Made by a program: the position numbers and the translations under genes. A stretch of 64,000 bases of DNA from an uncultured Actinomycetes bacterium. GTDB taxonomy: Bacteria > Actinomycetota > UBA4738 > HRBIN12. The stretch is taken from contig CAVYBY010000007.1 in the NCBI GenBank assembly GCA_963766935.1, positions 3,911-67,910 of the forward strand, written 5' to 3'. The notes beneath the pieces were generated by a model. That model searched no databases, had not been told where the DNA came from, and saw nothing but the letters and a program-made list of their open reading frames with translations. Positions 813 through 19,898 of this stretch are shown here, piece by piece; within the stretch, counting starts at the first letter, position 1, and every line of letters begins with the position of its first letter.

Positions 813-825
813 GTCCGCCTCCTGT

Positions 826-1617: not shown

Positions 1618-1634
1618 GTTCCGCATCACGCAAC
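1618..1634. promoter_or_regulatory. Putative operator GTTCC-N7-GCAAC (copy 1, one mismatch), just upstream of iclR
   Basis: GTTCCGCATCACGCAAC. It matches the perfect palindromes at 12101 and 17353. Confidence 0.65.
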
Positions 1635-1658
1635 ATGGTCTGCCTCTCCGCAACGGCG

Positions 1659-1688
1659 ACGCTAGAGTGACCGGCCGGACCCTGTCAA
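1659..1688 (-). promoter_or_regulatory. Sigma-70-type promoter of iclR (TTGACA-N18-TAGCGT)
   Basis: The minus strand reads TTGACAgggtccggccggtcactcTAGCGT. A promoter with the same layout sits at 12140-12169. Confidence 0.65.
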
Positions 1689-1737
1689 TCGTGGCACTAG
1701 GCTGTGCGGTGGGGTCCGCCGGACCGATTGGCACCCA

Positions 1738-2947
1738 ATGAGTGAAGCGAACGAACGGTACTGGCGTGCGGCCGAGCCCAAGCCCGCGTACGACGTGCTG
1801 GTCGTGGGCGGCGGCGGTCACGGCCTGGCGACGGCCTACTACCTGGCAAAGAACCACGGCATCACCGACGTCGCGATCCTCGAGAAGGGCTGGCTCGGCG
1901 GCGGCAACATGGCCCGCAACACCACGGTCATCCGCTCGAACTATCTCTGGGACGAGTCCGCGGCCATCTACGAGCACTCCCTGAAGCTCTGGGAAGGGCT
2001 CGCCGACGAGCTCGGGGTCGGACCTCGAGTTCGACCAGAAGGGCGTGCTGAACCTCTCGCACGACCTCGGCGACATCCGATCGAGCATGCGACGGGTCAA
2101 CGCGAACCGGCTGAACGGGGTGGACGCCGAGTGGCTCGAGCCCGCCGAGGTCAAGGCGTTCTGCCCGATCGTGAACGTCTCGTCCGACGTCCGCTATCCG
2201 GTGCTCGGGGGCACCCTGCAGCGGCGCGGGGGAACCGCCCGCCACGACAAGGTCGCATGGGCGTTCGCCGGGGGCGCAGACCGGGCGGGCGTCGACATCG
2301 TCGAGCACTGCGAGGTGACCGGGTTCCTTCGCGGCGCCGGCGGGCGCGTCGAAGGCGTCGAGACCTCGCGCGGTCCGATCCGCGCTCGAACGGTCGCGCT
2401 CTGCGCCGCCGGGCACACGAGCGTCCTTGCGTCGATGCTCGGCATCCGCCTCCCACTGCAATCGCATCCGCTCCAGGCCCTGGTGTCGGTGCTGCTCGAA
2501 CCGGTGCTCGACTGCGTCGTGATGTCGAACGCGGTGCACGTCTACGTGAGCCAGGCCGACAAGGGCGAGCTGGTCATGGGGGCGGGGATCGACCCGTACA
2601 ACGGCTACGCGCAGCGCGGCTCGTTCCACGTGATCGAGCACCAGATGGCCGCGGCCGTCGAGCTGTTCCCGATCTTCGCTCACGCAGCGTTGCTCCGGAC
2701 CTGGGGCGGCATCGTCGACGTCAGCCCCGACGCGTCCCCGATCATCGGCCCATCGCCCGTCGACGGCGTCTTCCTCAACTGCGGATGGGGAACCGGCGGG
2801 TTCAAGGCGACGCCGGGCGCGGGATGGGCGTACGCGGAGACCGTCGCGCAGGGTGAGGCGAGCGAGCTCGCGCGCCCGTTCGCGCTGGAACGCTTCACGA
2901 CCGGCGCCCTCATCGACGAACACGGCGCGGCGGCGGTCGCGCACTGA
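1738..2947 (+). CDS. soxB: Sarcosine oxidase subunit beta (apparent +1 frameshift near 2015-2022)
   Basis: [36 protein letters not shown] and the C-terminus [12 protein letters not shown]. It is split over ORFs 1738+ and 2045+ and rejoins as ...[12 protein letters not shown]. Confidence 0.94.
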
Positions 2948-2976
2948 TGCGCGCGATGATGAATGCGCACTGATGC
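2939..2976 (+). repeat. 12-bp direct repeat GCGCACTGATGC at the soxB/yjbR junction
   Basis: Copies at 2939-2950 and 2965-2976, separated by 14 nt. Confidence 0.75.
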
Positions 2977-2980
2977 CTCC

Positions 2981-3322
2981 ATGCAGGCGAGGACCGTCCG
3001 CAAGCTGGCTCTCTCCCTCCCGGGAGCGGAGGAACTGGAGACCTGGGACACCCCGACCTTCCGCGTCCGGAACAAGATCTTCGCGATGTTCGCCGGCGGG
3101 GGACGCGAGGTGTGGGTCAAGTCGATGCACGACGAGCAGCAGGCGCTGATCGCGATGGACCCGGACACGTTCTTCCGCCCGCCGTACGTCGGTCCGAGCG
3201 GCTGGGTCGGCGTGCGGTTCGCAACGGCCGACCGCGACGAGATGCGCGAGCTGATCGTCGAGGCCTGGCGGATGACGGCGACCAAGCAGGCCGTACGGGC
3301 CTTCGACGAGGAGCAGGGCTGA
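2981..3322 (+). CDS. MmcQ/YjbR family putative DNA-binding protein
   Basis: LALSLPGAEE...PTFRVRNKIFA...FFRPPYVGPSGWVGV...LIVEAWRMTA is the typical YjbR signature. The stop overlaps the soxD start (TGATG). Confidence 0.85.
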   Translation: MQARTVRKLALSLPGAEELETWDTPTFRVRNKIFAMFAGGGREVWVKSMHDEQQALIAMDPDTFFRPPYVGPSGWVGVRFATADRDEMRELIVEAWRMTATKQAVRAFDEEQG

Positions 3323-3600
3323 TGCTCCTGATCCGATGTCCGTGGTGCGGTCCGCGCGAGGAGATCGAGTTCCGCTACGGCGGACAGGCGCACCTCGCGT
3401 ATCCGGCCGACCCGGACGCGCTGACCGACGAACAGTGGGCCGATTTCCTATTCATGCGCGAGAACCCGAGGGGCCCGTTCGCCGAACGTTGGATGCATAC
3501 GGCGGGGTGCCGGCGGTGGTTCAACGCGATCCGCGACACCACGACACACCGGATCCTCGTCACGTACCGCATGGGCGAGCCACGGCCGGAGACGGGCTGA
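3322..3600 (+). CDS. soxD: Sarcosine oxidase subunit delta
   Basis: MLLIRCPWCGPREEIEFRYGG...HTAGCRRWFNAIRDT (zinc-binding Cys/His). Confidence 0.95.
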   Translation: MLLIRCPWCGPREEIEFRYGGQAHLAYPADPDALTDEQWADFLFMRENPRGPFAERWMHTAGCRRWFNAIRDTTTHRILVTYRMGEPRPETG

Positions 3601-6344
3601 TGTCCGGGCGGCGTCTGGAGACCGGCGGACGATGGATCGACCGGACCACGCCGGTCGGGTTTGCCTTCGACGGACATGCGTACGAAGGGTTCGCCGGCGA
3701 CACGCTCGCGTCGGCGCTGCTGGCGAGCGGTATGGACGCGCCGTTCCGCAGCCCGATCCGCGGACGGCCGCGGGGCGTGTTCTCCGCCGGCGTGGAGGAG
3801 CCGAACGCCTTCGCCGAGGTGTCGGCGCCACGGTTCGACCTCATCGCGCCGGCGACGATGGTGGAGCTGGTCCCCGGGCTCGTGACCGAGTCTCGGAGCG
3901 GTATCGGGCGGCTTCCCGAGGATCCGGCCGGCGCGCCGGTGGCCCGGTCGGAGCACCGTCACGCGCACGTCGAGACCCTCGTGGTGGGCGCTGGCGTCGC
4001 CGGTTTGCGAGCCGCGCTCGAGGCCGTCCGCCGTGGCGACCGCGTGCTGCTCGTCGACGAACACCACCGCTTCGGCGGGTCCGCCACCTCGCTCGACAAG
4101 ATCGAGGGAGAGCCCGCATACGGATGGATCGAGCGCGCGGTCGCGGAGCTCGACGGAGCAGCCGACGCGCACGTGCTCGTCCGGGCGACGGCGCTCGGCG
4201 TCTACGACGAGGGCTACGTCGTGCTGCACGAGCGATCGCAGCGGGTCGAACGTCTCTGGCACGTGCGAGCCGGGCACGTGGTGCTCGCCACCGGCGCACA
4301 CGAGCGACCGATCGTATTCGAGAACAACGACCGCCCCGGCGTGATGCTCGCCTCGGCCGCACATCTGTATCTCGACCGGTTCGGCGTTCTTCCCGGCGAG
4401 CGCGCCGTCGTCTTTACGACCAACGACGCCGCCTACCGAAGCGCGTTCGCCCTCGCCGACGCCGGCCTGGAGATCGTGGCGATCGCCGATCCGCGCGACG
4501 GGCGCCCGATCCACGACGAGGCACGCAGCCGGGGTCTCGACGTGCGACCCGGAGTGGTGACCGGCGTCGACGGCGAACTCCGTGTCGAGTCGGTCCACAT
4601 CCGGTCGTCGGAACGATCCGGTGTGTCCTTCGCCGATCTGCTGCTCGTCTCCGGAGGCTGGAACCCGGTCGCCCAGCTGTGGAGAGCGGCCGGGGGTGGA
4701 CTTCACTACGACGAGGAGCGCGCGGCGTTCGTGCCCGCTCTTGCCGCCGGGCCGCCGTGGCTCTCGGTCGTCGGTCACGCGTCCGGCGACGGGTTGCCCG
4801 CCTCGAAAGAGGTGCCGTTCGTCCTCAACGGTCTGCTCGACGACCATTTCGTCGATCTGCAGCGCGACGCCTCCCTGTTCGCCGTCCAAGAGGCGGTTCT
4901 CGCTGGTCTGCGTTCGGTCGAGCACGTCAAGCGAGCCACCTACATCGGCACGGCCGTCGATCAGGGCCGGACGTCGGGCGTCGTCACCGCGTCGATCGTG
5001 AGCGCCTTCCTCGCGCATCCGCTCGAGGACCTGATTCGTGTGGGTCTGCCATCGGCCTCTCCGGAAGTGGAGCCGACCAGCGCGCGTCCGCCGTATGCGC
5101 CGGTGTCCTACTCGGTGCTCGCGGGGCCGGATCGCGGCCCGGTGCTCCTCGACCCGGTGCGCACGACGCCGATCAACGAATGGCACGCCGAGCGCGGCGC
5201 CGTCTTCGAGAACGTCGGTCAGTGGAAGCGGCCGCGCTACTTCCCCACCGGCGGCGAGGATCTGGACGCCGCGGTCGGGCGCGAGTGTCTGGCGGTGAGA
5301 ACCGGCGCCGGCGTGCTCGACGCGTCGACGCTGGGCAAGATCGACGTCGTCGGACCGGACGCCGGCGTCTTTCTCGACCGGATGTACACGAACCGGATGA
5401 GCAGCCTGCGAACCGGCCGTATCCGGTACGGACTGATGCTCGGGCTCGACGGCATGGCGATGGACGACGGCGTCGCGATGCGCCTCGCCGACGACCACTT
5501 CTTCGTCACGACGACGACCGGCGGCGCCGCGGCCGTCCTCGACCGGTTCGAGGAATGGCTCCAGACCGAGTGGCCCGATCTGCGCGTCTACTGCACGTCG
5601 GTGACCGAGCAATGGGCCGACGTCGCCGTGGGCGGACCCCGGGCGCGTGACGTGCTCGAGTCGGCCGGCACCGACCTCGACCTCGATCCCGCGGCCTTCC
5701 CGTTCATGACCGTGCGCGAAGGAACCGTCGCCGGCGTCCCGGCCCGGGTCGCGCGCGTCAGCTTCACCGGCGAGCTGTCGTACGAGATCAACGTCGAGGC
5801 ATGGCACGGGCGCCACGTCTGGGACGCGGTGATGGAGGCCGGTGCCTCGCTCGGCATCACGCCGTACGGAACCGAGACGATGCACGTCCTTCGCGCCGAG
5901 AAGGGCTTCCCGATCGTCGGCCAGGACACGGACGGCACGGTCACGCCCGACGACCTCGGGATGTCGTGGATCGTCGACATGGACAAGGGGGACTTCGTCG
6001 GGCGGCGCTCGCTCCGGCGGCCCGACACCATGCGGGCCGGACGCAAGCAGCTCGTCGGCCTCCTGCCGGCCGACCGCGACGTCCTCATCCCGGAGGGAGC
6101 GCAACTCGTCCTCGAAGAGACGGAACGAATCCCGATGCCGATGGCCGGACACGTCACCTCGAGCTACCGGAGCGCGGCGCTCGGCCGCACCTTCGCGCTG
6201 GCGATGCTGAACGACGGCCGCGCGCTCCACGGGTCGACGGTGTTCGCCTCGCACCCCGGCGGGACGGTCGCCGCCGAGGTCACGTCGCCGGTGTTCTGGG
6301 ATCCGGACGGACGCAGGCGCGACGGCGATCCGGAGGGTGGCTGA
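3600..6344 (+). CDS. soxA: Sarcosine oxidase subunit alpha
   Basis: GDTLASALLA, FAD/NAD motif VVGAGVAG, HVKRATYIGTAVDQGRTS and a GcvT-like C-terminal half (LDASTLGKI, RVSFTGELSYE, LRAEKG). TGATG coupling on both sides. Confidence 0.95.
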   Translation: MSGRRLETGGRWIDRTTPVGFAFDGHAYEGFAGDTLASALLASGMDAPFRSPIRGRPRGVFSAGVEEPNAFAEVSAPRFDLIAPATMVELVPGLVTESRSGIGRLPEDPAGAPVARSEHRHAHVETLVVGAGVAGLRAALEAVRRGDRVLLVDEHHRFGGSATSLDKIEGEPAYGWIERAVAELDGAADAHVLVRATALGVYDEGYVVLHERSQRVERLWHVRAGHVVLATGAHERPIVFENNDRPGVMLASAAHLYLDRFGVLPGERAVVFTTNDAAYRSAFALADAGLEIVAIADPRDGRPIHDEARSRGLDVRPGVVTGVDGELRVESVHIRSSERSGVSFADLLLVSGGWNPVAQLWRAAGGGLHYDEERAAFVPALAAGPPWLSVVGHASGDGLPASKEVPFVLNGLLDDHFVDLQRDASLFAVQEAVLAGLRSVEHVKRATYIGTAVDQGRTSGVVTASIVSAFLAHPLEDLIRVGLPSASPEVEPTSARPPYAPVSYSVLAGPDRGPVLLDPVRTTPINEWHAERGAVFENVGQWKRPRYFPTGGEDLDAAVGRECLAVRTGAGVLDASTLGKIDVVGPDAGVFLDRMYTNRMSSLRTGRIRYGLMLGLDGMAMDDGVAMRLADDHFFVTTTTGGAAAVLDRFEEWLQTEWPDLRVYCTSVTEQWADVAVGGPRARDVLESAGTDLDLDPAAFPFMTVREGTVAGVPARVARVSFTGELSYEINVEAWHGRHVWDAVMEAGASLGITPYGTETMHVLRAEKGFPIVGQDTDGTVTPDDLGMSWIVDMDKGDFVGRRSLRRPDTMRAGRKQLVGLLPADRDVLIPEGAQLVLEETERIPMPMAGHVTSSYRSAALGRTFALAMLNDGRALHGSTVFASHPGGTVAAEVTSPVFWDPDGRRRDGDPEGG

Positions 6345-6907
6345 TGGAATCGCCCGCGCTGGATCCCATCGCCCGACGGGCCCGCGACCTCATCGACCTG
6401 CCGCGGGCGACCGGCGGCGGCGTCGACTGCCGGACGATTCCTTTCTTCGCCCAGGTCGACCTCCGCCTGGACCCCGCCCATGCGGGACGCTCGCCCATCC
6501 CGCTGCCGCTCGAAGCCAACACGGCGCAGGAGGCGGGACCGCGCGCGGCGCTCTGGCTCGGTCCCGACAAGTGGCTCGTCCTCGGCCCCGCGGACAGCGC
6601 GGCAGGGATCGCCGCCGACCTCGACCGGGCGCTCGACGGACTCCATCGCTCGATCGTCGACGTCTCGGCCAACCGGGTGGTCCTGGAGCTGTCGGGTCCG
6701 GAGCGGCTGGATCTGCTCTCGACGGGATGCCCGATCGATCTGCATCCGAGGGCGTGGGGCCCCGGCCGGTGCGCCCAGACGCTCTTCGGCCGGGCGCCGG
6801 TCATCCTGCACGAACGATCGGACGCCACCGCCGTGCTCGTGCGGCCGTCGTTCGCCGACTACGTGATCGACCGGCTTCTGGCCCAGGTTTCCCCGCCGGG
6901 CGATTGA
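6344..6907 (+). CDS. soxG: Sarcosine oxidase subunit gamma
   Basis: LWLGPDKWL, VDVSANR, GCPIDLHPRAW...CAQT, RPSFADY. Confidence 0.92.
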   Translation: MESPALDPIARRARDLIDLPRATGGGVDCRTIPFFAQVDLRLDPAHAGRSPIPLPLEANTAQEAGPRAALWLGPDKWLVLGPADSAAGIAADLDRALDGLHRSIVDVSANRVVLELSGPERLDLLSTGCPIDLHPRAWGPGRCAQTLFGRAPVILHERSDATAVLVRPSFADYVIDRLLAQVSPPGD

Positions 6908-6976
6908 CAGCGGCAGGGCCGCACTGGACGATTCTTGCCGGTTCCACTTGACCGGTTCGACTTGGGAGGCAATCAC

Positions 6977-7474
6977 ATGTGGTCCTGGTTCACGTTCTGG
7001 CTGCTTCTTCACATCCTGGGCGCGATCGTCGCCTTCGGCCCGACCTTCACGTTCGGGTTGATCGGCGCGCAATCGGCGAAGGAGCCGATGCACGCCGAGT
7101 TCGCCACACGCCTCGTCCACATGATCTCGAAGAACGTCGTCATCCCGGTTGCGCTGTCGATGGCCGTCACCGGTGTCGGCCTGATCTTCGCCGGCCACGT
7201 CGACCTGTGGGGCTCCGAATGGCTGATCATCGCGATCGTCGTCTACGTCGGCGCGGTGGGCTTCTCGATCGCGGTCCAGGCGCCGACGGCCGAGAAGCTG
7301 ATCGGCGTCCTTCAGTCGATGCCGCCCGGTCCGCCGCCCGAGGGAGCAACCGGACCACCCCCGGCGATCGCGGCGCTGACGAAGAGGCTCACGATCGGCG
7401 GGATCTACCTGACCGTCAGCGTGCTGGTCATCGTGCTGCTGATGATCTGGCGCCCGGGAGCGGCCTTCTCGTAG
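6977..7474 (+). CDS. DUF2269-like integral membrane protein
   Basis: About 4 hydrophobic helices, LHILGAIVAFGPTF near the N-terminus and LMIWRP at the C-terminus. GGAGG RBS. Confidence 0.75.
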   Translation: MWSWFTFWLLLHILGAIVAFGPTFTFGLIGAQSAKEPMHAEFATRLVHMISKNVVIPVALSMAVTGVGLIFAGHVDLWGSEWLIIAIVVYVGAVGFSIAVQAPTAEKLIGVLQSMPPGPPPEGATGPPPAIAALTKRLTIGGIYLTVSVLVIVLLMIWRPGAAFS

Positions 7475-7486
7475 CCGGTCCGGCGA

Positions 7487-9937
7487 TCAGGCCCTGAGCC
7501 GCTCGCCGGCGGGGTCGACCAGCGGATCGGCGGCGACGGTCGCGGGAAGGCGCTCGTCGAAGTACTCGATCTCCACCGGCGTCCCCGCGGCCGCAAACTC
7601 GGCCGGCAGGTAGCCGTAGACGATCCCGCGCCCGATCGAGTAGCCGTACGCGGCGCTCGTCACGTAGGCCACCACATTCCCGCCGGCCCGGATCGGCTCC
7701 TTCCCCATGACCACGGCCGACGGATCGTCGAGCGTGATGCAGCTGAGCTTGTGGGCCGACCCTCGCTCGCGGATCGCCTCCAGGGCTTCCCGGCCCTGGA
7801 AGTCGCCCTTGTCCATGCGCACGGCGAAGCCGAGTCCCGCCTCGAACGGGTCGTGCTCGGTGCCGATGTCCTGGCCCCACAGCCGGTAGCCCTTCTCCAG
7901 GCGAAGCGAGTCGAACGCGCCGAGGCCGGCCGCCACCATCCCCAGATCGTGCCCGGCCTCCCACAACAGGTCCCAGACGCGCCCGCCCATCGCGAACGGT
8001 CCGTAGATCTCCCAGCCGAGCTCGCCGACATAGCTGATGCGAGCCGCCAGACAGTCGGCCTCGCCGACGTTGATCCGCTGCGCCCGCAGGTACGGGAACG
8101 CCTCGTTCGAGACGTCGGCGTCGGTCACCTGTTCCAGCACGTCGCGCGCGCGGGGACCCCACAGACCCAGCGCGAACAGCGACCCGGTCCGCTCGGTGAT
8201 CGAGACGCGCTCCCCCTCCCGGATCTGGAACCGAAGCCACGCGAGGTCGTGCTGCCCCGACCCGCCGCCGGTCACCACGCGGAACCGGTCGGCCAGGCGC
8301 ATGACGGTCAGGTCGCATCGGATGCCGCCCTTCGGGGTCAGCATCTGGGTGTAGACGATCGTTCCGACCGGGCGGTCGATGCGGTTGGCCGAGATCCGCT
8401 CGAGGAACCCGAGCGCGTCGGGCCCGGTCACGTCGAACTTCGCGTACGCCGTGATGTCGAGGACCCCGACACCGGATCGAACGGCGAGGTGCTCGGCGCC
8501 GACGCACGGCGACCAGTTCGCCGCCGCCCATCCATCCCTTCGCTCCCACGGCTCGCCGCGCAGCAGCGGCCGGTTCGCCTCGAACCACTGCGGCCGCTCC
8601 CAGCCCGCCCCGACGAAGAACTCGGCGCCGAGCTCGGCCTGCGCGCCGGAGAACGGCGTCAGCCGAAGCCCGCGCGGGTGCGACATCTGCTGGAGCGGAT
8701 GGATGACGTCGTAGACCTCCCGATACTGCTGCGCGCCGCGCGCTCGCACGTACGGCGGCGTCGTCATGAACGGGTAGAAGCGGTTCGCGTCGGCCTCGGC
8801 CAGATCCAAGCTTGGCTCCCCCGCGACCATCCACTCGGCCACCTGCCGGCCCATCCCGCCGCCGTGGGTGACCCAGACCGCCTCGCAGATCCAGACGCCG
8901 CGAACCTTTGCCGACTCGCCGACGATCGAGCCCATGTCCGGCGTGAACGAGAACATCCCGTTGATGGCGGTCGAGGGATCCATCCGCCCCTCGATCGGGG
9001 GAAGGAGCCTGACGCTCGCCTCCTCGGCCACCTCGAAGTCCTTCGGCGTGAAGGGCTCGATCGAGGGCATCCGGTCGCCACCGGGTCGCCGCAGGTCGGC
9101 GGGGTCGAACAAGATCGGCTCGTGCCGGTAGTTGCCGACACCGTAGCGGTCCTGCTGCTGCCGGTAGTACAGCGACATGTCCTGATGCCGCAGGATCGGG
9201 TGGACCACCTCGCGTGTCTCGCCGGCGAGCTCCGGCAGCGGGAGCGTCCACATCAGCTGGTGCTGGACGACCGCCAGCGGGATGGGAACGCCGGCCATCG
9301 CGCCGATCCGCGGCCCCCAGATGCCCGCGCACACGAGCACCGTTTCGCATTCGACGTTTCCGCGATCGGTCTGAACGCCTCGGACGCGGCCGTCGCGGAT
9401 GTCGAACCCGGTGACGGTCACGCCGCCTTCGAACCCGACGCCGCGTGCTTCGGCCGCGCGGGCGAGGGCGGCTGCGGCCCGCACGCCCTTGGCGATCCCG
9501 TCGCTCGGGACGAGATACGAGCCGAGGATCTCCGAGGGGTCCAGCAGCGGGATCCGCGCCGCGGTGTCCTGGGGCGAGAGCAGGGTGGCGCCCTCGATCC
9601 CGTAGGACCGTGCGAACCCCATCCGGCGCTTCAGCTCCTGCATCCGCTCGGGGGTCGTGGCCACCTCGATGCCGCCGACGCCGTACCAGCAGGGCTCGCC
9701 GTCGAGCTCGAGCGAGGCGTACAGCTCGACGGTCTGCTGCGCGATCCGGCACATCGTTCGCGAACCGTTGGTCTGGAAAACGAGGCCGGGGGCGTGCGAC
9801 GTCGAGCCGCCGGTCTCGAACAGCGGCCCCTGGTCCAGGACCAGCACGTCGGTGAGCCCGAGCTCGGCAAGGTGATGGGCGGCGCTCGTGCCGACGATCC
9901 CGGCCCCGATGACGACGACCTGGGCTCGATCGCGCAT
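7487..9937 (-). CDS. Dimethylglycine oxidase/dehydrogenase-like FAD oxidoreductase with a GcvT (THF-binding) domain
   Basis: Starts MRDRAQVVVIGAGIVG, then GGSTSHAPGLVFQ, FSFTPD, EAVWVTHGGG, ERPQWF, RISYVGELGWE and SLRLEKGY. 816 aa. Confidence 0.9.
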   Translation of the reverse strand: MRDRAQVVVIGAGIVGTSAAHHLAELGLTDVLVLDQGPLFETGGSTSHAPGLVFQTNGSRTMCRIAQQTVELYASLELDGEPCWYGVGGIEVATTPERMQELKRRMGFARSYGIEGATLLSPQDTAARIPLLDPSEILGSYLVPSDGIAKGVRAAAALARAAEARGVGFEGGVTVTGFDIRDGRVRGVQTDRGNVECETVLVCAGIWGPRIGAMAGVPIPLAVVQHQLMWTLPLPELAGETREVVHPILRHQDMSLYYRQQQDRYGVGNYRHEPILFDPADLRRPGGDRMPSIEPFTPKDFEVAEEASVRLLPPIEGRMDPSTAINGMFSFTPDMGSIVGESAKVRGVWICEAVWVTHGGGMGRQVAEWMVAGEPSLDLAEADANRFYPFMTTPPYVRARGAQQYREVYDVIHPLQQMSHPRGLRLTPFSGAQAELGAEFFVGAGWERPQWFEANRPLLRGEPWERRDGWAAANWSPCVGAEHLAVRSGVGVLDITAYAKFDVTGPDALGFLERISANRIDRPVGTIVYTQMLTPKGGIRCDLTVMRLADRFRVVTGGGSGQHDLAWLRFQIREGERVSITERTGSLFALGLWGPRARDVLEQVTDADVSNEAFPYLRAQRINVGEADCLAARISYVGELGWEIYGPFAMGGRVWDLLWEAGHDLGMVAAGLGAFDSLRLEKGYRLWGQDIGTEHDPFEAGLGFAVRMDKGDFQGREALEAIRERGSAHKLSCITLDDPSAVVMGKEPIRAGGNVVAYVTSAAYGYSIGRGIVYGYLPAEFAAAGTPVEIEYFDERLPATVAADPLVDPAGERLRA

Positions 9938-9951
9938 GCCGGTCCGCCGCC

Positions 9952-10866
9952 CTACGAGGCGGTGCCTTCCTCCTCGGAGACCCCGTCGGAGGAGACGGGG
10001 CGGGCGGCCCGGCCGTAGGACTCGACGAGCTGCCGCCGCCAGTCCTGGGTGCTCTTGACCTGGTTGAAGGTGTAGATGTGGAACCCGGCGATGCCGTAGC
10101 CGGGGTTGGCAACGAACGGCGCGACGTTGGCGACGAACGCGTCGGGCCGGTAGCCGCCCCGTTTCATCAGCCGGGCGACGAGACCGCCGTACTTGCTCAC
10201 GTACTTCACCGACGGGCCCACGCCGACCCGCAGGGACACCTCGATCAGCCGCCGCCGGTTGACCGCCCCCGCCATGCCGATCACGACCGGGAGCTCGATG
10301 CCCCGATCGCGGATCCGCGCGATCCAGGCGGCCACGACGCGAGGCTCGAAGCAGATCTGGGTGGCGACGTGCGAGGCGACCTGCGCCTTGTCGGCGAGCG
10401 CCTCGAGCAGGACTTCCTCGTCGATCAGCGGATGGCCCTCCGGATACCCGCCCACGCCGATCTCGGAGGGCCGCGGACCGGCGTCGGCGATCGCGGCCAG
10501 CAGCTCGCCCGCCGATGCATACGGCCCGAGCGGGTCGTGCCCGTCGCCGCCGATGACGAAGAGCCGGGAGATCCGGGCGGCGTCGAGGCGGCCGAGGATC
10601 TCCTGGAGGTGCTCGCGGCTGCGAACGGTCCGGGCGGACACGTGCGGCATGACCTCGTACCCGTCCATGTGGAGGCGTTCCGCGAGATCGAGCGTCGGAT
10701 CGGGGCCCCTGTGCGGCGAGCACGTGACGGTGACGACCGAGCCCTTCGGCAGCGCCTCGGTCACCTTGGACTCGATGCCGCCCATGGGGATGACTTCGAA
10801 CCGAGCCCGGGCCAGCAGCTCGCCCAGACCCGGCCGCATCGAGCCGAAACCGGCCTGCCTGCTCAC
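9952..10866 (-). CDS. metF: Methylenetetrahydrofolate reductase (MetF family)
   Basis: VTVTCSP, MPHVSARTV, LFVIGGD, GGYPEGHP, ATQICF, HIYTFNQ. Confidence 0.85.
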   Translation of the reverse strand: MSRQAGFGSMRPGLGELLARARFEVIPMGGIESKVTEALPKGSVVTVTCSPHRGPDPTLDLAERLHMDGYEVMPHVSARTVRSREHLQEILGRLDAARISRLFVIGGDGHDPLGPYASAGELLAAIADAGPRPSEIGVGGYPEGHPLIDEEVLLEALADKAQVASHVATQICFEPRVVAAWIARIRDRGIELPVVIGMAGAVNRRRLIEVSLRVGVGPSVKYVSKYGGLVARLMKRGGYRPDAFVANVAPFVANPGYGIAGFHIYTFNQVKSTQDWRRQLVESYGRAARPVSSDGVSEEEGTAS

Positions 10867-10890
10867 AGCTCTTGTCTCATGATTTTGGGC

Positions 10891-12066
10891 TCACGACTTC
10901 GGGATCTCCTTCTTCGGATCCCAGTGCGGCATCTCGACGACGGTGGCATCCACACGTCCGGACGCCGGGGTCTCCGTCTGCAACGCGGTCCCGAGCTCCG
11001 CGAACTCGATCGGCACCATCGCCAGGCCGATGTTCTTCTCCAGACGCGGCGAGTGGCAGGCGCTCGTCACGCGGCCGACCTGCCGGCCGTCGGCGAACAC
11101 CGGGAAGAAGTCGACCATCTCGTTGTCGATGTAGCTGCCGACCGGGTCGCCGCCGATGTCCACGCCCACCAGCTTCTGGGTCACGCCCTCGTCGCGGATG
11201 CGCCGGAGCGCTTCCTTGCCGACGAAGTCGGCCTCCTGATCGAGGTCGACCATCCACGTGTAGTGGTACCCGACCTCGTAGGGGTTGTTCTCGTACCACA
11301 TGTCCGCTCCGAAGGCGAGAATGCCACCCTCGATGCGCCGGATGTGACACGGCCCGATGACGCGCAGGTCGACCGGTTTGCCGGCCTCGAGAACGGTGTC
11401 CCACAACTTCTGCCCGTTCTGGCTCGCGTCGTGCAGGTAGATCTCGTATCCGACCTCCCCCGTGTAGCCGGTGCGCGAGATGACGACGTCCATCCCCTCC
11501 AGCGTCGTCTGCATGAGGCCGTAATACGGCACGTCGAGAATCTTCTCGCCGAACAGGTTCGTCAGCACCTGCTTCGCGTTCGGTCCCTGGATCTGCAACG
11601 GCGCGACGTCGATCTCCTTCACCGTCACGTCCATGCCCTTCGCGTGCGCGATGCCCAGCGCGTACAGATTCACGTCGCTGTCGGCGAGCGAGAGCCAGAA
11701 CTCGTCCTCGGCCACGCGCAGGAGAACCGGGTCGTTGAGGATGCCGCCGTCGGGCGCGGTGATGAACACGTACTTCGCCTGGTCGACGGCGCACTTGTGC
11801 AGGTCGCGCGGCACGATCATGTTCGTCAGGTCGAACGCGTCGGGCCCCTTGATCTGGATCTGCTTTTCCACTCCCACGTCCCAGAGCGTCACGTTGTTCA
11901 CGAGCGACCAGTACTCGCTCACCGGGTCCCCGTAGTGACGCGGGTGGTAGGTGTGGTTGTAGACGCTGTAGCGGTGCACGCCGTGCTGGCGCGAGGCGTA
12001 GAAGTAGGGCGACTTGCGGATCCGCGTGTACAGCAGGATCCCGGGGTTCTCGATCACCTCAGGCAC
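10891..12066 (-). CDS. GcvT-family THF-dependent demethylase, DmdA-like
   Basis: RIRKSPY...YSVYNH, LWDVGVEKQIQIKGPDA, GGILNDPV (NDP as in DmdA, not the DD of GcvT), WLSLADSD, SRTGYTGEVGYE, RRIEGGIL. Confidence 0.85.
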   Translation of the reverse strand: MPEVIENPGILLYTRIRKSPYFYASRQHGVHRYSVYNHTYHPRHYGDPVSEYWSLVNNVTLWDVGVEKQIQIKGPDAFDLTNMIVPRDLHKCAVDQAKYVFITAPDGGILNDPVLLRVAEDEFWLSLADSDVNLYALGIAHAKGMDVTVKEIDVAPLQIQGPNAKQVLTNLFGEKILDVPYYGLMQTTLEGMDVVISRTGYTGEVGYEIYLHDASQNGQKLWDTVLEAGKPVDLRVIGPCHIRRIEGGILAFGADMWYENNPYEVGYHYTWMVDLDQEADFVGKEALRRIRDEGVTQKLVGVDIGGDPVGSYIDNEMVDFFPVFADGRQVGRVTSACHSPRLEKNIGLAMVPIEFAELGTALQTETPASGRVDATVVEMPHWDPKKEIPKS

Positions 12067-12100
12067 GGGACAGGCTCCTTTCTCCGTGGCCGGGGGCTGC

Positions 12101-12117
12101 GTTGCTCAAGGCGCAAC
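12101..12117. promoter_or_regulatory. Putative operator GTTGC-N7-GCAAC (copy 2), upstream of the dmdA-like gene
   Basis: Perfect inverted arms GTTGCTCAAGGCGCAAC, between the promoter and the start codon. Confidence 0.72.
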
Positions 12118-12139
12118 AACAGTGGGCTCTCCGCAACCG

Positions 12140-12169
12140 ACGCTATGACCGGCGGCGATGCCCTGTCAA
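12140..12169 (-). promoter_or_regulatory. Sigma-70-type promoter (TTGACA-N18-TAGCGT) for dmdA-like/metF/dmg
   Basis: The minus strand reads TTGACAgggcatcgccgccggtcaTAGCGT followed by GTTGCGGAGAG, the same layout as the iclR promoter. Confidence 0.68.
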
Positions 12170-12189
12170 GACGGACGGCGGACGCCCGG

Positions 12190-13185
12190 TCAGCCCGAGG
12201 TGTGCTGGTAGGCGACCAGATCGCCGCCGCGCAGAGCGACGATCCATCCCTCGAGCGTTCCCTGCACGTACTCGCTGCCGGGGTTGAAGCACTGGGTCCG
12301 GCGGATCCGGAAGCGGCCGGCCGACTCGTGGATGTGGCCGTGCAATGAGACGGCCGGCTGATAGGCCGTCACGGCCTCGCGGACCGCGACGCTTCCACCC
12401 CCCGTGGTCACGAACCGGCCGGCTTCCCTCACCGGGACCGGGAACCCGCCCGGTTCCTTCGGAGGACCGAGCTTGAGGCAGGTGTCGATGGGGGTGTTCT
12501 TCGGCGGGCAGTGGAAGTTGAAGACGCACCGGCCGACATCGGGGACGCGGGCCACCTCGCGCCGGATCGCTTCCGCGATCTCGCCCTCGCTCGCCTCCCG
12601 CGGGGTGTCCCAGGGCGTGAAGGTGGAGAGACCGACCGTGATCATCGTGTGCTGGTCGTCCAGCTCGACGAGGCGGCCCTCACAGCCGACGACCCGGTCG
12701 CCGTGGTGCCGGTCCAGCGTCTCGAGCACCGACGGCTCGTCGTCGTTCCCGCCGGTCAGGAACATCCGAGCGGGGGTTCCGGCGAGGGTCTCCTCGGCCA
12801 GCTGGATCCACTCGGCGAGGCGCGCGCTGGCGGTCTCGTGGAAGAGGCCCTTGACGGCGAGTGCGTCCGATCTCAGCTCCGCGTACCTGTCCGGTTCCAC
12901 GACGACCCAGTAGAAGCCGGTCCGCTCGATGCTCGCGCGAAACGCCAGGAGCTCGTCCTCGCCTTCGAGGGAGTGCTCCGTGCCCTGGAAGTGAGCGCGA
13001 TAGCCGCCGCTCTTCCTGACGATCGGCACGAGCGCCTTGCCCATCAGGTCCCCACCGAACACCAGCGCGTCGACGCCGTAGAACTTCGCCGCGTTCAGGA
13101 ACTTCCGAAACGCGACCTGCGAACCGTGGATGTCGGCGGCAAAGAAGATGCGGGTTGGCCGAGGTCGCCGACGCCCGAGCGGCAT
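12190..13185 (-). CDS. Icc-related calcineurin-like metallophosphoesterase, paralog 1
   Basis: AADIHGS, GGDLMGK, GGNDDE, FHCPP, HGHIHES, NPGSEY. ATG at 13185. Confidence 0.85.
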   Translation of the reverse strand: MPLGRRRPRPTRIFFAADIHGSQVAFRKFLNAAKFYGVDALVFGGDLMGKALVPIVRKSGGYRAHFQGTEHSLEGEDELLAFRASIERTGFYWVVVEPDRYAELRSDALAVKGLFHETASARLAEWIQLAEETLAGTPARMFLTGGNDDEPSVLETLDRHHGDRVVGCEGRLVELDDQHTMITVGLSTFTPWDTPREASEGEIAEAIRREVARVPDVGRCVFNFHCPPKNTPIDTCLKLGPPKEPGGFPVPVREAGRFVTTGGGSVAVREAVTAYQPAVSLHGHIHESAGRFRIRRTQCFNPGSEYVQGTLEGWIVALRGGDLVAYQHTSG

Positions 13186-13189
13186 GGCC

Positions 13190-14644
13190 TCACCCCAGGT
13201 CGATGACGATCGTCTTGAGCTCGGTGAGCCGCTCCATCGAGAAGCGGCCGCCGACGCGGCCGACGCCGCTTTGCGATCCGGACGCGCCGCCAAAGGGAAG
13301 GTGGGACTCCCAGTAGTTCGTTCCCTCGTTCACGTTGACCCAGCCGGTCCGGACCGCCTCGGCATACCGAAGGCCGCGCCGGAGATCGCGCGTGAACACG
13401 GCCGAAAGCAGCCCGTAGGACGAACGATTGACGAGCTCGATCGCCTCCTGCTCGGACCGGATCGTCGTGATCGGGGCGACCGGCCCGAACGTCTCCTCGC
13501 GCGCGATCTCCATGTCCTCGGTGACCCCGTCGAGCACCGTCGCCTCGAAGAAGAGGTCGCTGCCGTGTTCGGCCGCGCGGTGGCCGCCCGACACGAGCGT
13601 GGCGCCGGCGCCGACGGCCTGCTCGACGTGACGCTGGCTCTTGGCAGCCGTCGGCTCGTTGTTGAGCGGGCCCATCGTGGTGGCCGCATCGAACGGATCG
13701 CCGAGGCGAATCTGCTCGACGGCGGCCGTCAGGGCGGCCAGATAGTCGTCCTTCACGTCCTCGTGCACCAGGATCCGCTCCCCGGCGGTGCAGCTCTGGC
13801 CGGCGTTGAGGAAGCAGGCGACGAGGGTGGCTCCGACGGCGGCGTCCAGGTCGGCGTCCTCGAGCACGACGAGCGGCCCGTTGCCGCCCATCTCGAGCAG
13901 CAGCTCCTTTCCCGCCGCCCGCGCGGCAACCGCGTGGCCGGTGGCGATCGAGCCGATGAACCCGATCGCCTGCGTGCCCGGGTTCGCGGCGATCTCGTCG
14001 CCGACGACCGGGCCGTGACCGGTCACGAGGTTCACGACGCCGGCAGGAAGATCCGCCGCCTCGAGGCACTCGGCGAAGCGGACGGCGCAGACCGCGGTCG
14101 TCGGCGCGGGGACCCACACCACCGCGTTTCCGTATGCGATCGCCGGCGCGAGGATCTCGCCCGGCATTGTGTACGGCCAGTTCCACGGGCTGATGATCGA
14201 GACGATGCCGCGGGGGACGCGCTGCAGCAGCACCCGCTTGTTCGCGTCGATGGACGGCGGAAGGAGTCCCTCCATGCGGGTCGCATCGGCGGCGGCCATG
14301 TCGAAGTAGGCGATCAGCTCCTGGACCTCGTCGCGAGCCTCCGCTTCGAGCGGCTTGCCCTGGTCGAGTGCGAGCGTCGCCGCCAGGTCCTCGCGGCGCG
14401 CGTCGATCGCCTCGGCGATCCGGCGCATCGCGGCGGCCCGGTCGAACGCCGAGCGACTCGCCCAGCCCGGCTGGGCGTCGGCGGCGGCGGCGATCGCCCG
14501 GTGCGCGTCCGCCCGGGAGCCCTGGGCGACGGTCCCGATGACCGCGCCGGTCGAGGGCGAGAACGCCTCGAACGTGGCGCCGTCTTCCGCCGGCACCCAC
14601 GCCCCACCGATCCACAGCCGATGCTCGTCCGCCACGTCGCTCAC
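13190..14644 (-). CDS. NAD(P)-dependent aldehyde dehydrogenase
   Basis: SPWNWP, FIGSIATG, LEMGGNGP (catalytic Glu), NAGQSCTA (catalytic Cys), EETFGPV, PFGGASGSQSG. GTG start at 14644. Confidence 0.93.
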   Translation of the reverse strand: MSDVADEHRLWIGGAWVPAEDGATFEAFSPSTGAVIGTVAQGSRADAHRAIAAAADAQPGWASRSAFDRAAAMRRIAEAIDARREDLAATLALDQGKPLEAEARDEVQELIAYFDMAAADATRMEGLLPPSIDANKRVLLQRVPRGIVSIISPWNWPYTMPGEILAPAIAYGNAVVWVPAPTTAVCAVRFAECLEAADLPAGVVNLVTGHGPVVGDEIAANPGTQAIGFIGSIATGHAVAARAAGKELLLEMGGNGPLVVLEDADLDAAVGATLVACFLNAGQSCTAGERILVHEDVKDDYLAALTAAVEQIRLGDPFDAATTMGPLNNEPTAAKSQRHVEQAVGAGATLVSGGHRAAEHGSDLFFEATVLDGVTEDMEIAREETFGPVAPITTIRSEQEAIELVNRSSYGLLSAVFTRDLRRGLRYAEAVRTGWVNVNEGTNYWESHLPFGGASGSQSGVGRVGGRFSMERLTELKTIVIDLG

Positions 14645-14663
14645 CTTAGGCCGAAACGGCCGA

Positions 14664-14685
14664 GGGGCGGCCCGGAGGCCGCCCC
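14664..14685 (-). terminator. Intra-operon GC stem-loop after the APC permease gene (terminator or mRNA stabiliser)
   Basis: GGGGCGGCC-cgga-GGCCGCCCC, a perfect 9-bp stem. There is no U-tract. Confidence 0.5.
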
Positions 14686-14712
14686 GTCGAACCCGTCGCG
14701 CCGAACCGCGTG

Positions 14713-16326
14713 TTACTCGACCGGGATCTCCTGATAGATGGCTTTCAGGTCGATCCCCTGGCTCTTGCGGTAGATCTTCGCGACCACATAGACGACCACC
14801 GCCAGCAGGTACATCGAGCCCATGAACCACAGCGACGTGGAGTTGTTGACGTAGTACACGTCGTTGGTGAACCACTCGTACAGGTTGAAGCCCAGGAACA
14901 GGGCGCTGATGGTCCCCGTCACCGTGATCAACGGGATCCCGGCGATCTTGTATCGCGCGATCGCGGAGTTCTCGTACAGGTGCTTCTTCCGCCACGGCAG
15001 GATGATCGCCGCGATGGACGTCCCGAAGAACGTCACCGCGATCACGAGCGTCGCATCCAGGATGTACGTGGCGAAGTTGTCCGTGTAGGCGTAGAGCAAA
15101 CCGACGATGAGCGACGGCACCAGCATCAGGATCAGCGCCCAGACCGGGACGTGGCGCTTCTCGGTCACGTCGGCCACCTTCTCCGGCAGGATCCGGTCGA
15201 ACGCCGCGGCGAAGATGACCCGCGTCGACGACAGGAACAGCGTGCCGGCCCACCCGAGGAACCAGGCGCCGAACATCAGCACGAGGATCGCCTGGACCAA
15301 CGCGTTGTGGAAGAAGAAGCTCACGAGGAGCGGCGGATACGACCAGACCGGGACCGTGCCGGTGCCGTTCCAGTAGTCGAGGTTGGCCGCGTTGAAGAAG
15401 TCCCAGCCGAAGAACTTGGACGAGAGCAGCAGGAAGGCGACCGCGACGGCGATCGTGACCCACAGGCCCCACATCATGCCGCTCATGACGCGCTTGAAGT
15501 CGCTCGCGCCGCGGACCTCGCCGTAGAGCGTGGCGCCCCAGTTCGGCCAGAGGATCCAGAAGCACAGGAACGGGATCAGCAGGAGCGAGTCCCCGAGGAA
15601 CGGCGAGAACCCGAGCTTTGCCGGCAACGCTCCGCCGGCCCCGTCGATGATGCCCTGATAGGCGTTGTCGACGCCGAACAGCTTCGAGGACTCCGTGTTG
15701 AAGGCGCTCTCGAAGCCGCTGCGCGACCCGAACAGCATCACGAGGAAGACGATGCCGAGCGCGATCATCCCGACGTAGAAGCAGTACTTCTGGATCTTCG
15801 CGTACCCCTCCATGCCGAGCGAGACGAGCGCGCCGGCCAGAACGACGACCAGGACGATCACCGTGAACAGGCCGATGTCCTTGCCGAGGAAGTCGAGCGC
15901 GCCCTGCCACTTGAGGATGGCGGCGAGAGGCTGCAGCACCTCGACGTTGAAGATGCCGCCGTAGACGGGCGCCCAGTACCACAGGATGAACCACCACCCG
16001 GTGACGGCCAGGACGAACCCGATCCCGCCGCCCAGGATGCGGCTCTGCCAGACGTAGTCGCCTCCGGCGCGCGGCATCACGGAGATGAGACCGGCGTAGG
16101 TGACGACGAGGAAGGACACGAACACGCCGGAGATCAGCAGCGCGGGAAGGACCTGCCCGGTCGTGACGAAGCCGAGCACCGACAGGGCATAGAACAGCCC
16201 GAGCGTCACGAAGTTGATCGACATGAACGAGTAGAGGAACGAGTCGAACTTCGACCAGCCCTTGACCAAGCCGGTCGCCTTGCGCAGGAACAACGTGGGA
16301 GCCTCGCCTACCGCTGCCATCTGCAC
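14713..16326 (-). CDS. APC superfamily amino acid/amine permease
   Basis: FLRKATGLVK at the N-terminus, MPRAGGDYVWQSR, YGEVRGA, RVIFAAAFDRILP, AIYQEIPVE at the C-terminus. About 12 hydrophobic helices. Confidence 0.9.
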   Translation of the reverse strand: MQMAAVGEAPTLFLRKATGLVKGWSKFDSFLYSFMSINFVTLGLFYALSVLGFVTTGQVLPALLISGVFVSFLVVTYAGLISVMPRAGGDYVWQSRILGGGIGFVLAVTGWWFILWYWAPVYGGIFNVEVLQPLAAILKWQGALDFLGKDIGLFTVIVLVVVLAGALVSLGMEGYAKIQKYCFYVGMIALGIVFLVMLFGSRSGFESAFNTESSKLFGVDNAYQGIIDGAGGALPAKLGFSPFLGDSLLLIPFLCFWILWPNWGATLYGEVRGASDFKRVMSGMMWGLWVTIAVAVAFLLLSSKFFGWDFFNAANLDYWNGTGTVPVWSYPPLLVSFFFHNALVQAILVLMFGAWFLGWAGTLFLSSTRVIFAAAFDRILPEKVADVTEKRHVPVWALILMLVPSLIVGLLYAYTDNFATYILDATLVIAVTFFGTSIAAIILPWRKKHLYENSAIARYKIAGIPLITVTGTISALFLGFNLYEWFTNDVYYVNNSTSLWFMGSMYLLAVVVYVVAKIYRKSQGIDLKAIYQEIPVE

Positions 16327-16348
16327 CCCCTCCCGGGTCGGAACGGCC

Positions 16349-17296
16349 TCAGCCGTTCACCAGTTGGTAGTTCTTGATCTTCCCCTTCTTCGGATCGATG
16401 TTCACGATCGCGGCTTGCAGGATGCCCTCTTCGTAGGAGCTGCCGGGGTTGAGCGCGAGGGTCGTCCCGATCCGCGCGGCCCCCTTGCTCTCGTGGATGT
16501 GCCCGTGCAGCGACAACACCGGCTGGAACCGCTGGACGGCTTCCAACACCGACGTCGATCCGACCGGGCCGAGCGCCTGCCCGCCCGACTTGTACGTCAG
16601 GTCGTCGTTGAGCGCCGGCGCGTTGTCGAGCTTCGAGCCGTACGGCGGCGCGTGGAAGTTGAGGATCGTGGTCGCCGGATCGGACGCGTGCTCGAGCGCG
16701 TGCTCGATCCGGGTCGCGATCTCCGGCTCTTCCGCCTCACGGAACGTGTGCCAGGGCGTCGGATTGGTCCAGCCCATCGAGATCATCGTGTAGCCGCCGA
16801 GATCGATCGGGTGGTCCTCGTCGCCGGTCTCAACGACGTTCGCGTGCGTTAGCAGGTCGTCGATCTCGAACATGTCGTCGTTTGCGGGGCAGGCGATCAC
16901 GCGAATCCCGGTGCCGGCCAGCTTGTCCTCGGCCATCGCGATCCACCGCTCGGTCCCCTCGAGCATGACTTCCTTGAAACGCTTGTCGACGAGGTCGGCG
17001 TCCTCCTGCATGGCGCGGTACTCCTCCTCGGAGACCCGGATCGGGTAGTAGCCGCGGTTCATGACGCGTTTTTCGAACTCCGTGATCTCTTCTGAGGTCT
17101 CGAGCGTCTCGCGGAAGTCCTGCAGGGAGGCCTCCCAGGTGCCGTCGGCCCTCTGCACGATGGGCACCATGGCCTTGCCGGTCACGTCGCCGCCCAGGAT
17201 GACCGCGTCTGCCTTGTAGAAGGCCCCCGCGTTGAGGAACTTCCTCCAGCAGATCTCGGACCCGTGCAGGTCCGTCACGAAGAAGAGTTTCAGCAC
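16349..17296 (-). CDS. Icc-related calcineurin-like metallophosphoesterase, paralog 2
   Basis: VTDLHGS, GGDVTGK, PANDD, FHAPP, HGHIHES, NPGSSY. GTG start at 17296. Confidence 0.85.
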   Translation of the reverse strand: MLKLFFVTDLHGSEICWRKFLNAGAFYKADAVILGGDVTGKAMVPIVQRADGTWEASLQDFRETLETSEEITEFEKRVMNRGYYPIRVSEEEYRAMQEDADLVDKRFKEVMLEGTERWIAMAEDKLAGTGIRVIACPANDDMFEIDDLLTHANVVETGDEDHPIDLGGYTMISMGWTNPTPWHTFREAEEPEIATRIEHALEHASDPATTILNFHAPPYGSKLDNAPALNDDLTYKSGGQALGPVGSTSVLEAVQRFQPVLSLHGHIHESKGAARIGTTLALNPGSSYEEGILQAAIVNIDPKKGKIKNYQLVNG

Positions 17297-17352
17297 TCCA
17301 TCCCCACTCGAGGAGCGATGATCGCCCTCACGCCACACGCGCGCAAGGAACG

Positions 17353-17369
17353 GTTGCAGGATCCGCAAC
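17353..17369. promoter_or_regulatory. Putative operator GTTGC-N7-GCAAC (copy 3), between phosphoesterase 2 and betA
   Basis: Perfect inverted arms GTTGCAGGATCCGCAAC in the divergent intergenic region. Confidence 0.72.
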
Positions 17370-17433
17370 ACCGATGCGGCAGTAGCGCCGGGGACGCTCC
17401 CCACGGCGGCCCGCGGTGGTGCAGACTCCGGGC

Positions 17434-19855: not shown

Positions 19856-19898
19856 CCCGCTCCTCTCCTGCGCCGCGCCGAGCAACCTTACCCCCACC

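Follow-up and report, generated by a model that had tools for sequence, protein, structure and literature searches.

A predicted IclR-type operator and its local regulon in a choline and glycine betaine catabolic island of uncultured Actinomycetota

A 64,000-nucleotide stretch of DNA from an uncultured Actinomycetes bacterium (assembly GCA_963766935.1, contig CAVYBY010000007.1; hereafter the window) carries a gene island for the catabolism of choline, betaine and dimethylglycine (DMG) together with two odd metallophosphoesterase (MPE) genes, an APC permease gene and a gene for an IclR-family regulator, which raises the question of whether these genes are under common control and, if so, by what. 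An earlier reading made from the letters alone (the sequence-only reading) had noticed a shared 17-bp palindrome, GTTGC-N7-GCAAC, and had proposed that the local IclR controls its own gene, the sox genes, a dmdA-like/metF/dmg operon, the MPE/APC genes and betA. Our analysis suggests that the palindrome is likely to be a functional operator bound by the IclR protein encoded at 809-1609, the assignment of IclR as the probable binder being drawn from its co-occurrence with the sites, from the sites at its own gene and from the motif class. A regulon consisting of an autoregulated iclR, the operon of GcvT-like, MTHFR-like and DMG dehydrogenase/oxidase (DMGDH) genes and the MPE2-APC-betB-MPE1 operon is well supported by comparison with relatives (predicted operators in Table 1).

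The three sites that had been reported are present in the window exactly as described, namely GTTCCGCATCACGCAAC (1618-1634), GTTGCTCAAGGCGCAAC (12101-12117) and GTTGCAGGATCCGCAAC (17353-17369). Their description as intergenic holds for the second and third, and not cleanly for the first, which lies between two possible in-frame starts of iclR (ATG 1636 and ATG 1609). The palindrome was scored as perfect or with at most one mismatch, with shuffles of the window as the expectation. Two perfect copies were found against 0.05 expected, which agrees with the earlier estimate of fewer than one perfect chance copy in 64 kb, and four copies with at most one mismatch were found against 1.39 expected, so that site 1 (1618-1634) alone is not significant. 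A one-mismatch match at 62340 lies inside a PAS/histidine-kinase gene and was dropped as an operator. In the genome that holds the window (2.59 Mb, 70% G+C, 12 contigs), one-mismatch copies are at chance level (46 vs. roughly 56 expected), and two suggestive ones (C8:268037 and C9:38854) were dropped as lying in coding regions. Two perfect copies of this genome stand in promoter regions 5 kb apart, in the same catabolic island. The third, at C3:33745 (GTTGCCATGGTTGCAAC), is inside a long open reading frame (ORF) and is probably a chance match. By itself, the window is weak evidence for an operator.

A scan with the GcvT-like protein yielded 80 related loci (80-88% identity, 1.17 Mb, all from uncultured Actinomycetota; denoted below by L and a number), and when the window proteins were mapped onto them the island proved to be conserved, with a variable gene order. 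All 21 perfect palindromes in these loci lie outside the mapped genes, before betA, OpuA-type transporter operons, DMGDH, betB or MPE2; by target, sites occur at betA in 12 loci, at DMGDH in at least 8, at MPE2 in 5 and at iclR in more than 22. The 27 loci with an IclR ortholog in the genome hold 19 perfect sites vs. 0.34 expected (Poisson 9e-27), an excess of roughly 50-fold, and the IclR-negative loci hold one vs. 0.73 expected. Orthologous clusters, where the sequence-only reading had suggested looking for the motif, thus have perfect sites that are enriched and located in promoters where the genome has an IclR ortholog. Whole genomes were searched for IclR in 79 cases (the window's own and those of 78 of the 80 loci). 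Where a fetched locus had sites and no iclR, a homolog was found elsewhere in eight of nine genomes; seven of these are orthologs at 65-72% identity, and the eighth (genome G002, locus L014) is only 51% identical and was counted apart as weak. None of the 19 site-free genomes searched had an IclR homolog at E<=1e-40. Among the assessable loci, with two that have only a weak homolog set aside, 16 have ortholog and site, none has the ortholog without a site, 33 have neither and one has a site without the ortholog (Fisher 3e-12).

The regulator shows the features of the IclR family: an N-terminal winged helix-turn-helix (HTH_IclR, PF09339, E 1.2e-13, residues 18-67 of the 275-aa form), a C-terminal effector-binding domain (IclR_C, PF01614, E 5.6e-49) and a length within ~250-280 aa. 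It matches the IclR-family chains 3r4k, 2ia2, 1mkm and 8eju in the PDB at E 1e-26 to 1e-29. The top NCBIfam models (BhcR, PcaR/PcaU and KdgR) are all under their cut-offs, so no named subfamily applies to it. It is the sole close family member in its genome (E<=1e-40), and its matches in a homolog search are all metagenomic near-orthologs at 68-79% identity. A variant of the motif, GTTGC-N7-G(G/A/C)(A/G)AC, overlies the start codon in most IclR orthologs of at least 61% identity. In 15 of the 16 cases examined, the IclR frame (MRN…LQSV…) begins with an ATG or GTG at operator positions 9-11, and when the set was widened to about 25 orthologs at or above this identity, 22 had a site with at most two mismatches and ATG/GTG at these positions, which argues for the autoregulation that had been proposed; the arrangement was not found in IclR paralogs of 55% identity or less. 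The 3' half of the self-site doubles as Arg-Asn or Arg-Asp codons, and this coding role explains why the iclR site departs from a perfect palindrome. The copy at the GcvT-like gene is free of such a constraint and perfect, which fits this account.

In the window itself, the ATG within the operator (1624-1626) precedes the Q-S-V codons by 38 nt and is not in frame with iclR; one more G in the GGG run at 1615-1617 would restore the frame (MRNGEPMANGAELQSV). This may be a homopolymer assembly error or a true shift of the start to 1609 or to 1636, where the gene call on record for this genome begins iclR (275 aa). A 17-nt duplication at the 5' end of iclR was considered and set aside in favour of a simple frame offset. 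A distant IclR homolog (51% identity) in two genomes, those of L089 and L110, has GGTGC-N7-GCAAC ~60-65 nt upstream and may represent a sister subfamily with a similar operator.

The duplicated promoter that had been described at sites 1 and 2 is present, on the minus strand. Both copies run TTGACA, 18 nt, TAGCGT, 2-4 nt, GTTGCGGAGAG (1644-1654 at iclR and 12127-12137 at the GcvT-like gene) and then the palindrome, and the distance from the first GTTGC to that of the palindrome is exactly 20 bp in each. Across the genome, the composite GTTGC-N15-GTTGC-N7-G.AAC occurs at these two promoters only, which also account for two of the three occurrences of TTGACA-N16-19-TAGCGT. Upstream of iclR in the relatives the same series recurs as TTGAC, 17-19 nt, TAGCGT or TAGGGT, GTTGCG and, 20 bp on, GTTGCGYGATGMGRAAC. 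The promoter part of it (TTGAC-N17-19-TAGCGT/TAGGGT) is kept in ~12 relatives, and relatives also keep the GTTGCG repeat that precedes site B by 20 bp. In many relatives, including the nearest (L001), iclR is directly upstream of the GcvT-like gene under a single promoter, so that the two window copies look like the product of a rearrangement that placed iclR by sox. Together with the perfect operator in the second copy and the DMGDH sites in relatives, this layout suggests that IclR control extends to the dmdA-like/metF/dmg operon, as had been claimed.

Alignment of the target promoters revealed a further layout in at least 18 relatives' promoters, in which the palindrome is followed after 4-7 nt (mostly 6) by (C/G)TTGCG, then by 16-18 nt and by GAAGAT, GAACAT or TAGCAT. 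The last hexamer keeps a constant distance to the TTGCG element and not to the start codon, and so behaves as a -10 element; we infer that the TTGCG element doubles as -35 and third half-site. The MPE2 promoter of the window fits, its CTTGCGC lying at 17341-17347, and an equivalent palindrome stands before MPE2 in L024, L034, L056 and L072, which is consistent with the proposed control of the MPE/APC operon. At DMGDH promoters of the relatives the TTGCG element falls within a second palindrome, GTTGC-N4-GCAAC, and the composite spans 37 bp. The composites thus measure ~37 bp and combine a strong palindrome with a weaker site or half-site, their centres being 20-21.5 bp apart (20 bp at the iclR and GcvT-like promoters, ~21.5 bp at the relatives' DMGDH promoters). 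At betA, GGTGCAGACTCC upstream of the gene is conserved in relatives, with a -10-like CAGACT at 17422-17427 in the window, and its place directly before the likely betA start, GTG 17434, would be compatible with a transcript that has a short leader or none. The betA start of six relatives lies 39-48 bp beyond the palindrome, which there would overlap the betA -35. The claimed control of sox found no support. In L017 and L021, two IclR-positive relatives in which soxB and iclR are not neighbours, no site was found in the soxB promoter even with two mismatches allowed, and in the window the sites precede the soxB start by ~80-120 bp, in the iclR-proximal part of the shared region. On these two grounds sox is not counted in the regulon.

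Several findings weigh against the reading of the palindrome as an IclR operator and are taken together here. Genome-wide, the other place where the sequence-only reading had suggested looking, there are three perfect copies vs. ~2 expected by scaling the window shuffles; the count being near expectation, the enrichment rests on the position of the perfect sites (two of the three in promoter regions) and not on their number. Such a count would suit palindromes that arose by chance, or leader-RNA hairpins that bind no protein, and sites 1 and 2 would indeed be transcribed if the promoters given here are right. Against this stand the excess in IclR-positive relatives, which always falls in promoters, the target sites upstream of the -35, which are not transcribed in that direction, and the deviations from the palindrome, which are uncompensated (GTTGC...GGAAC gives a G-G clash in a hairpin). 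An Rfam search of window positions 1-24000 (E<=1) returned no match, and we regard this explanation as extremely improbable. The co-occurrence counts are inflated by shared ancestry and are not phylogenetically independent. A tree of the GcvT-like protein shows about five changes in IclR presence, each of them matched by site presence; only two of these transitions are on well-supported branches, and with such a number a sign test cannot reach significance. Two relatives, L009 (7264, perfect, with the second element) and L056 (1156), have a good operator and no detected IclR ortholog in the genome, and may carry orphan operators or be incomplete metagenome-assembled genomes; L014 combines a perfect DMGDH site with the homolog of only 51% identity. 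The small number of independent transitions and the sites of L009 and L056 would be explained if the site were real and bound by another transcription factor that shares the phyletic distribution of IclR. We consider this highly unlikely, given that nearly every IclR ortholog has the site over its start codon and that the motif falls in the main IclR class and matches the prediction for related actinobacterial IclRs (see below). No other regulator is present among the mapped cluster genes, the unmapped ORFs not all having been screened, and the YjbR-family and g19103 proteins were rejected as binders because both also occur in site-free clusters, a distribution that differs from that of the motif. 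With regard to the promoters, scans for E. coli-consensus promoters and for terminators called none in any of the three regions; the -10 elements TAGCGT and GATCAT fail the scan rule of 4/6 matches, so that what supports these promoters is their conservation. At betA, the window palindrome is 65-81 bp before GTG 17434 and the distance varies among relatives. Control of betA, which had also been claimed, is nevertheless probable from the palindromes before betA in the relatives, and less secure in the window. Finally, the weak -35 and -10 elements of the target promoters would possibly also suit activation.

If IclR binds the palindrome, repression seems somewhat better favoured than activation, since two promoters have the operator between their -10 and the start codon, since a half-site overlaps the -35 at the others, and since many lineages keep the island without the regulator and its sites, which is easier after the loss of a repressor. 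The composite layout would fit a dimer of dimers, i.e. binding as a tetramer. At the iclR and GcvT-like promoters, where the composite is just downstream of the -10, bound IclR would block transcription and so bring about both autorepression and repression of the operon, and at the MPE2 promoter, where the palindrome is directly upstream of the element that would serve as -35 and third half-site, it would occlude the -35. betA shares this divergent region and would probably, with less certainty, be controlled from it. Choline, betaine, dimethylglycine, sarcosine or a related pathway metabolite may act as the inducer that releases the repressor. Activators are also found in the IclR family, among them PobR, PcaU and PcaR. 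Three-box sites are known for PcaU (PMC8222616), and in the relatives' promoters the palindrome keeps a set distance of 4-7 bp to a weak downstream -35 (TTGCGC), which is paired with a weak -10 (GAAGAT, GAACAT, GATCAT). IclR might therefore bind the motif and activate or dually regulate MPE2, DMGDH, opuA and betA, recruiting RNA polymerase from a position centred at about -50, right next to the -35, and repress its own promoter and the copy of it only. This is unlikely in our view, as the third half-site overlaps the -35 hexamer, the DMGDH -35 lies inside the second palindrome, the catabolic GcvT-like operon of the window has its operator downstream of the -10, and at least 33 site-free relatives keep their clusters without the regulator.

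Repression by an IclR tetramer would be in line with what has been described for the family. The commonest class of IclR motif is a 17-bp GTT-11-AAC palindrome, and more than half of the IclR orthologous groups have tandem sites with centres 18-22 bp apart, which has been read as tetramer binding (Suvorova and Gelfand, 2021; PMC8222616); a spacing of 20 bp is typical of tandem sites and three-box sites also occur (PMC8222616). GTTGC-N7-GCAAC has the outer GTT and AAC of this class and the spacings of 20 and ~21.5 bp fall within the published range; the inner consensus YCRYW3RYGR (from the published GTTYCRYW3RYGRAAC; PMC8222616) is absent, position 4 being G and the spacer barely conserved. A closer counterpart is the actinobacterial IclR group 'ROP_14880', with members in Rubrobacter, Arthrobacter, Mycobacterium, Rhodococcus and Streptomyces, for which sites of the form TGTTGCGCA-T-TGCGCAACA (TGTTGC-N7-GCAACA) have been predicted (PMC8222616, Suppl. 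Table 1). These have the same GTTGC and GCAAC half-sites 7 bp apart, are often in tandem 19 nt apart, and precede both the gene of the regulator and operons near it. Of the proteins themselves the DNA-binding regions were compared, and these are also alike (…QSVDRAL…GVHKSTASRL… in ROP_14880, …QSVSRAL…GVHKATASRL… in the window), with recognition helices VHKSTASRL and VHKATASRL, respectively. The groups differ in the spacer, where GCA-T-TGC is conserved in ROP_14880 and not in the window motif. The match means that the motif type is not new and lends independent support to the IclR assignment. That study names no function for ROP_14880, and among the regulated genes listed for the group are dipeptide-type ABC transporters. 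The rows of its gene-content table include SoxD, SoxG, MetF, FolD, PurU, GcvT, ProV/ProX and BetT (PMC8222616). This suggests that some IclR regulog with such genes has been predicted there.

Among well-studied members of the family, E. coli IclR, AllR and TtgV, which are tetrameric repressors with tandem or long operators, share with the window protein the same two domains, a palindromic operator, paired sites about two helical turns apart, overlap with promoters and control of their own gene. They differ in half-sites and effectors, and TtgV and IclR have been studied by experiment whereas the window protein is known from sequence. PcaU, PobR and PcaR resemble it in having a palindrome with an extra repeat (here GTTGC-N7-GCAAC-N4-7-(C/G)TTGC), in controlling catabolic operons and in lying beside their targets, but they are mainly activators of aromatic-compound catabolism with other repeat sequences. 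The regulators described for the same pathway genes (betA, betB, DMG and sarcosine demethylation, betaine transporters), namely BetI (TetR family), GbdR and SouR (AraC family, with an amidotransferase-like domain), GbsR and the SoxR of Bacillus thuringiensis (PMC4941409), belong to other families and use other operators. No regulator of the IclR type turned up for choline, betaine or sarcosine catabolism in full-text literature searches.

Table 1. Predicted regulatory elements and genes of the island, with positions in the window unless a related locus is named.
Feature	Position	Strand	Basis or remark
iclR	809-1609	-	266 aa from ATG 1609; other in-frame start ATG 1636 gives 275 aa
Operator site B, iclR promoter	1618-1634	-	minus strand GTTGCGTGATGCGGAAC, one mismatch
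Degenerate operator site A, iclR promoter	1638-1654	-	GTTGCGGAGAGGCAGAC; centre 20 bp from site B centre
Putative iclR promoter	1659-1688	-	-35 TTGACA 1683-1688, 18-nt spacer, -10 TAGCGT 1659-1664; read from sequence
Operator site B, GcvT-like operon promoter	12101-12117	-	perfect palindrome; position and architecture as in iclR promoter
Degenerate operator site A, GcvT-like promoter	12121-12137	-	GTTGCGGAGAGCCCACT
Putative GcvT-like promoter copy	12140-12169	-	-35 TTGACA 12164-12169, 18-nt spacer, -10 TAGCGT 12140-12145
Putative MPE2-operon promoter	17318-17347	-	half-site CTTGC 17343-17347 overlaps -35 TTGCGC 17341-17346, 17-nt spacer, -10 GATCAT 17318-17323
Perfect palindrome, divergent MPE2/betA region	17353-17369		equivalents in relatives
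Predicted regulated operon GcvT-like/MTHFR/DMGDH	7487-12066	-	operator between -10 and first start codon
Predicted regulated operon MPE2-APC-betB-MPE1	12190-17296	-	Pfam; gene order kept in >25 relatives
soxB	1738-2947	+	split over two frames; regulon membership not supported
YjbR-family gene	2963-3322	+	gene map
soxA	3336-6344	+	gene map
Possible soxG	6337-6951	+	no family match
DUF2269 membrane protein	6935-7474	+	gene map
DMGDH	7487-~9949	-	Pfam/NCBIfam
MTHFR-like	9952-10866	-	Pfam/NCBIfam
GcvT-like/DmdA-like	10891-12066	-	Pfam/NCBIfam
MPE1	12190-~13200	-	Pfam
betB aldehyde dehydrogenase	13190-~14614	-	Pfam
APC permease	14713-16326	-	Pfam
MPE2	16349-17296	-	Pfam; start GTG 17296 gives VLKLFFVTDLHGS
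betA choline dehydrogenase	17434 (or 17416)-19083	+	NCBIfam equivalog, 806 bits, cut-off 732
Family-less g19103	19103-19897	-	264 aa, no Pfam/NCBIfam match; after betA
OpuA-type transporter set, L001	4443-8680
OpuA-type transporter set, L021	3141-7375
OpuA-type transporter set, L023	1286-5511
OpuA-type transporter set, L033	925-4149

The neighbourhood of these operators varies among the relatives. In IclR-positive ones an OpuA-type glycine-betaine/choline ABC transporter (ATPase, permease and OpuAC binding protein, assigned by Pfam) diverges from betA and shares the palindrome with it, a position taken in the window by the MPE2-APC-betB-MPE1 operon. In the IclR-less clade a gene of the g19103 type heads the MPE2 operon ~20-60 bp from betA (e.g. 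L035 3015-3752), and another motif sought in this betA/g19103 spacer yielded nothing usable. In L034, L056 and L072 the operator lies between the g19103-type gene and MPE2, which places g19103 outside the regulated unit there. In the window, soxB shifts frame between ~1993 and 2043, residues 13-109 of a relative's SoxB matching frame 3 and residues 93-409 matching frame 1, whereas relatives have a single ORF of ~409 aa; the split soxB is either a pseudogene or the result of an assembly indel.

As read here, this is a canonical IclR-type operator with an autoregulated local regulon, and what is new is the pathway controlled, including the MPE/APC module. It leaves the general understanding of IclR regulators unchanged and would be a fairly ordinary bacterial gene switch. 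Sister lineages in which regulator and operators have been lost together would offer an example of regulon turnover, and the regulator could be used as a sensor of a pathway intermediate. The result provides a concrete regulatory map, with three predicted operators and four putative promoters, for a conserved choline, betaine and dimethylglycine catabolic island in a widespread lineage of uncultured soil Actinomycetota. The sequence-only reading had tied the MPE module to choline/betaine catabolism, and the shared operator, conserved in relatives, argues for this; it adds to the conserved gene order in suggesting a place in quaternary-amine catabolism for the two odd metallophosphoesterases and the APC permease, and so narrows the search for their substrates. 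Rather tentatively, this may be the first IclR-type regulator of choline and glycine betaine catabolism, with a regulon in which two non-canonical metallophosphoesterases and an APC permease are linked to betB and betA and, in most lineages, with its own start codon at the operator dyad, where a single bound protein would sit over the early transcribed region as well as the start of translation. If that is true, such a regulon would indicate a way into the pathway that has not been described, such as the uptake and dephosphorylation of a choline phosphoester, and that compound would possibly be the inducer.

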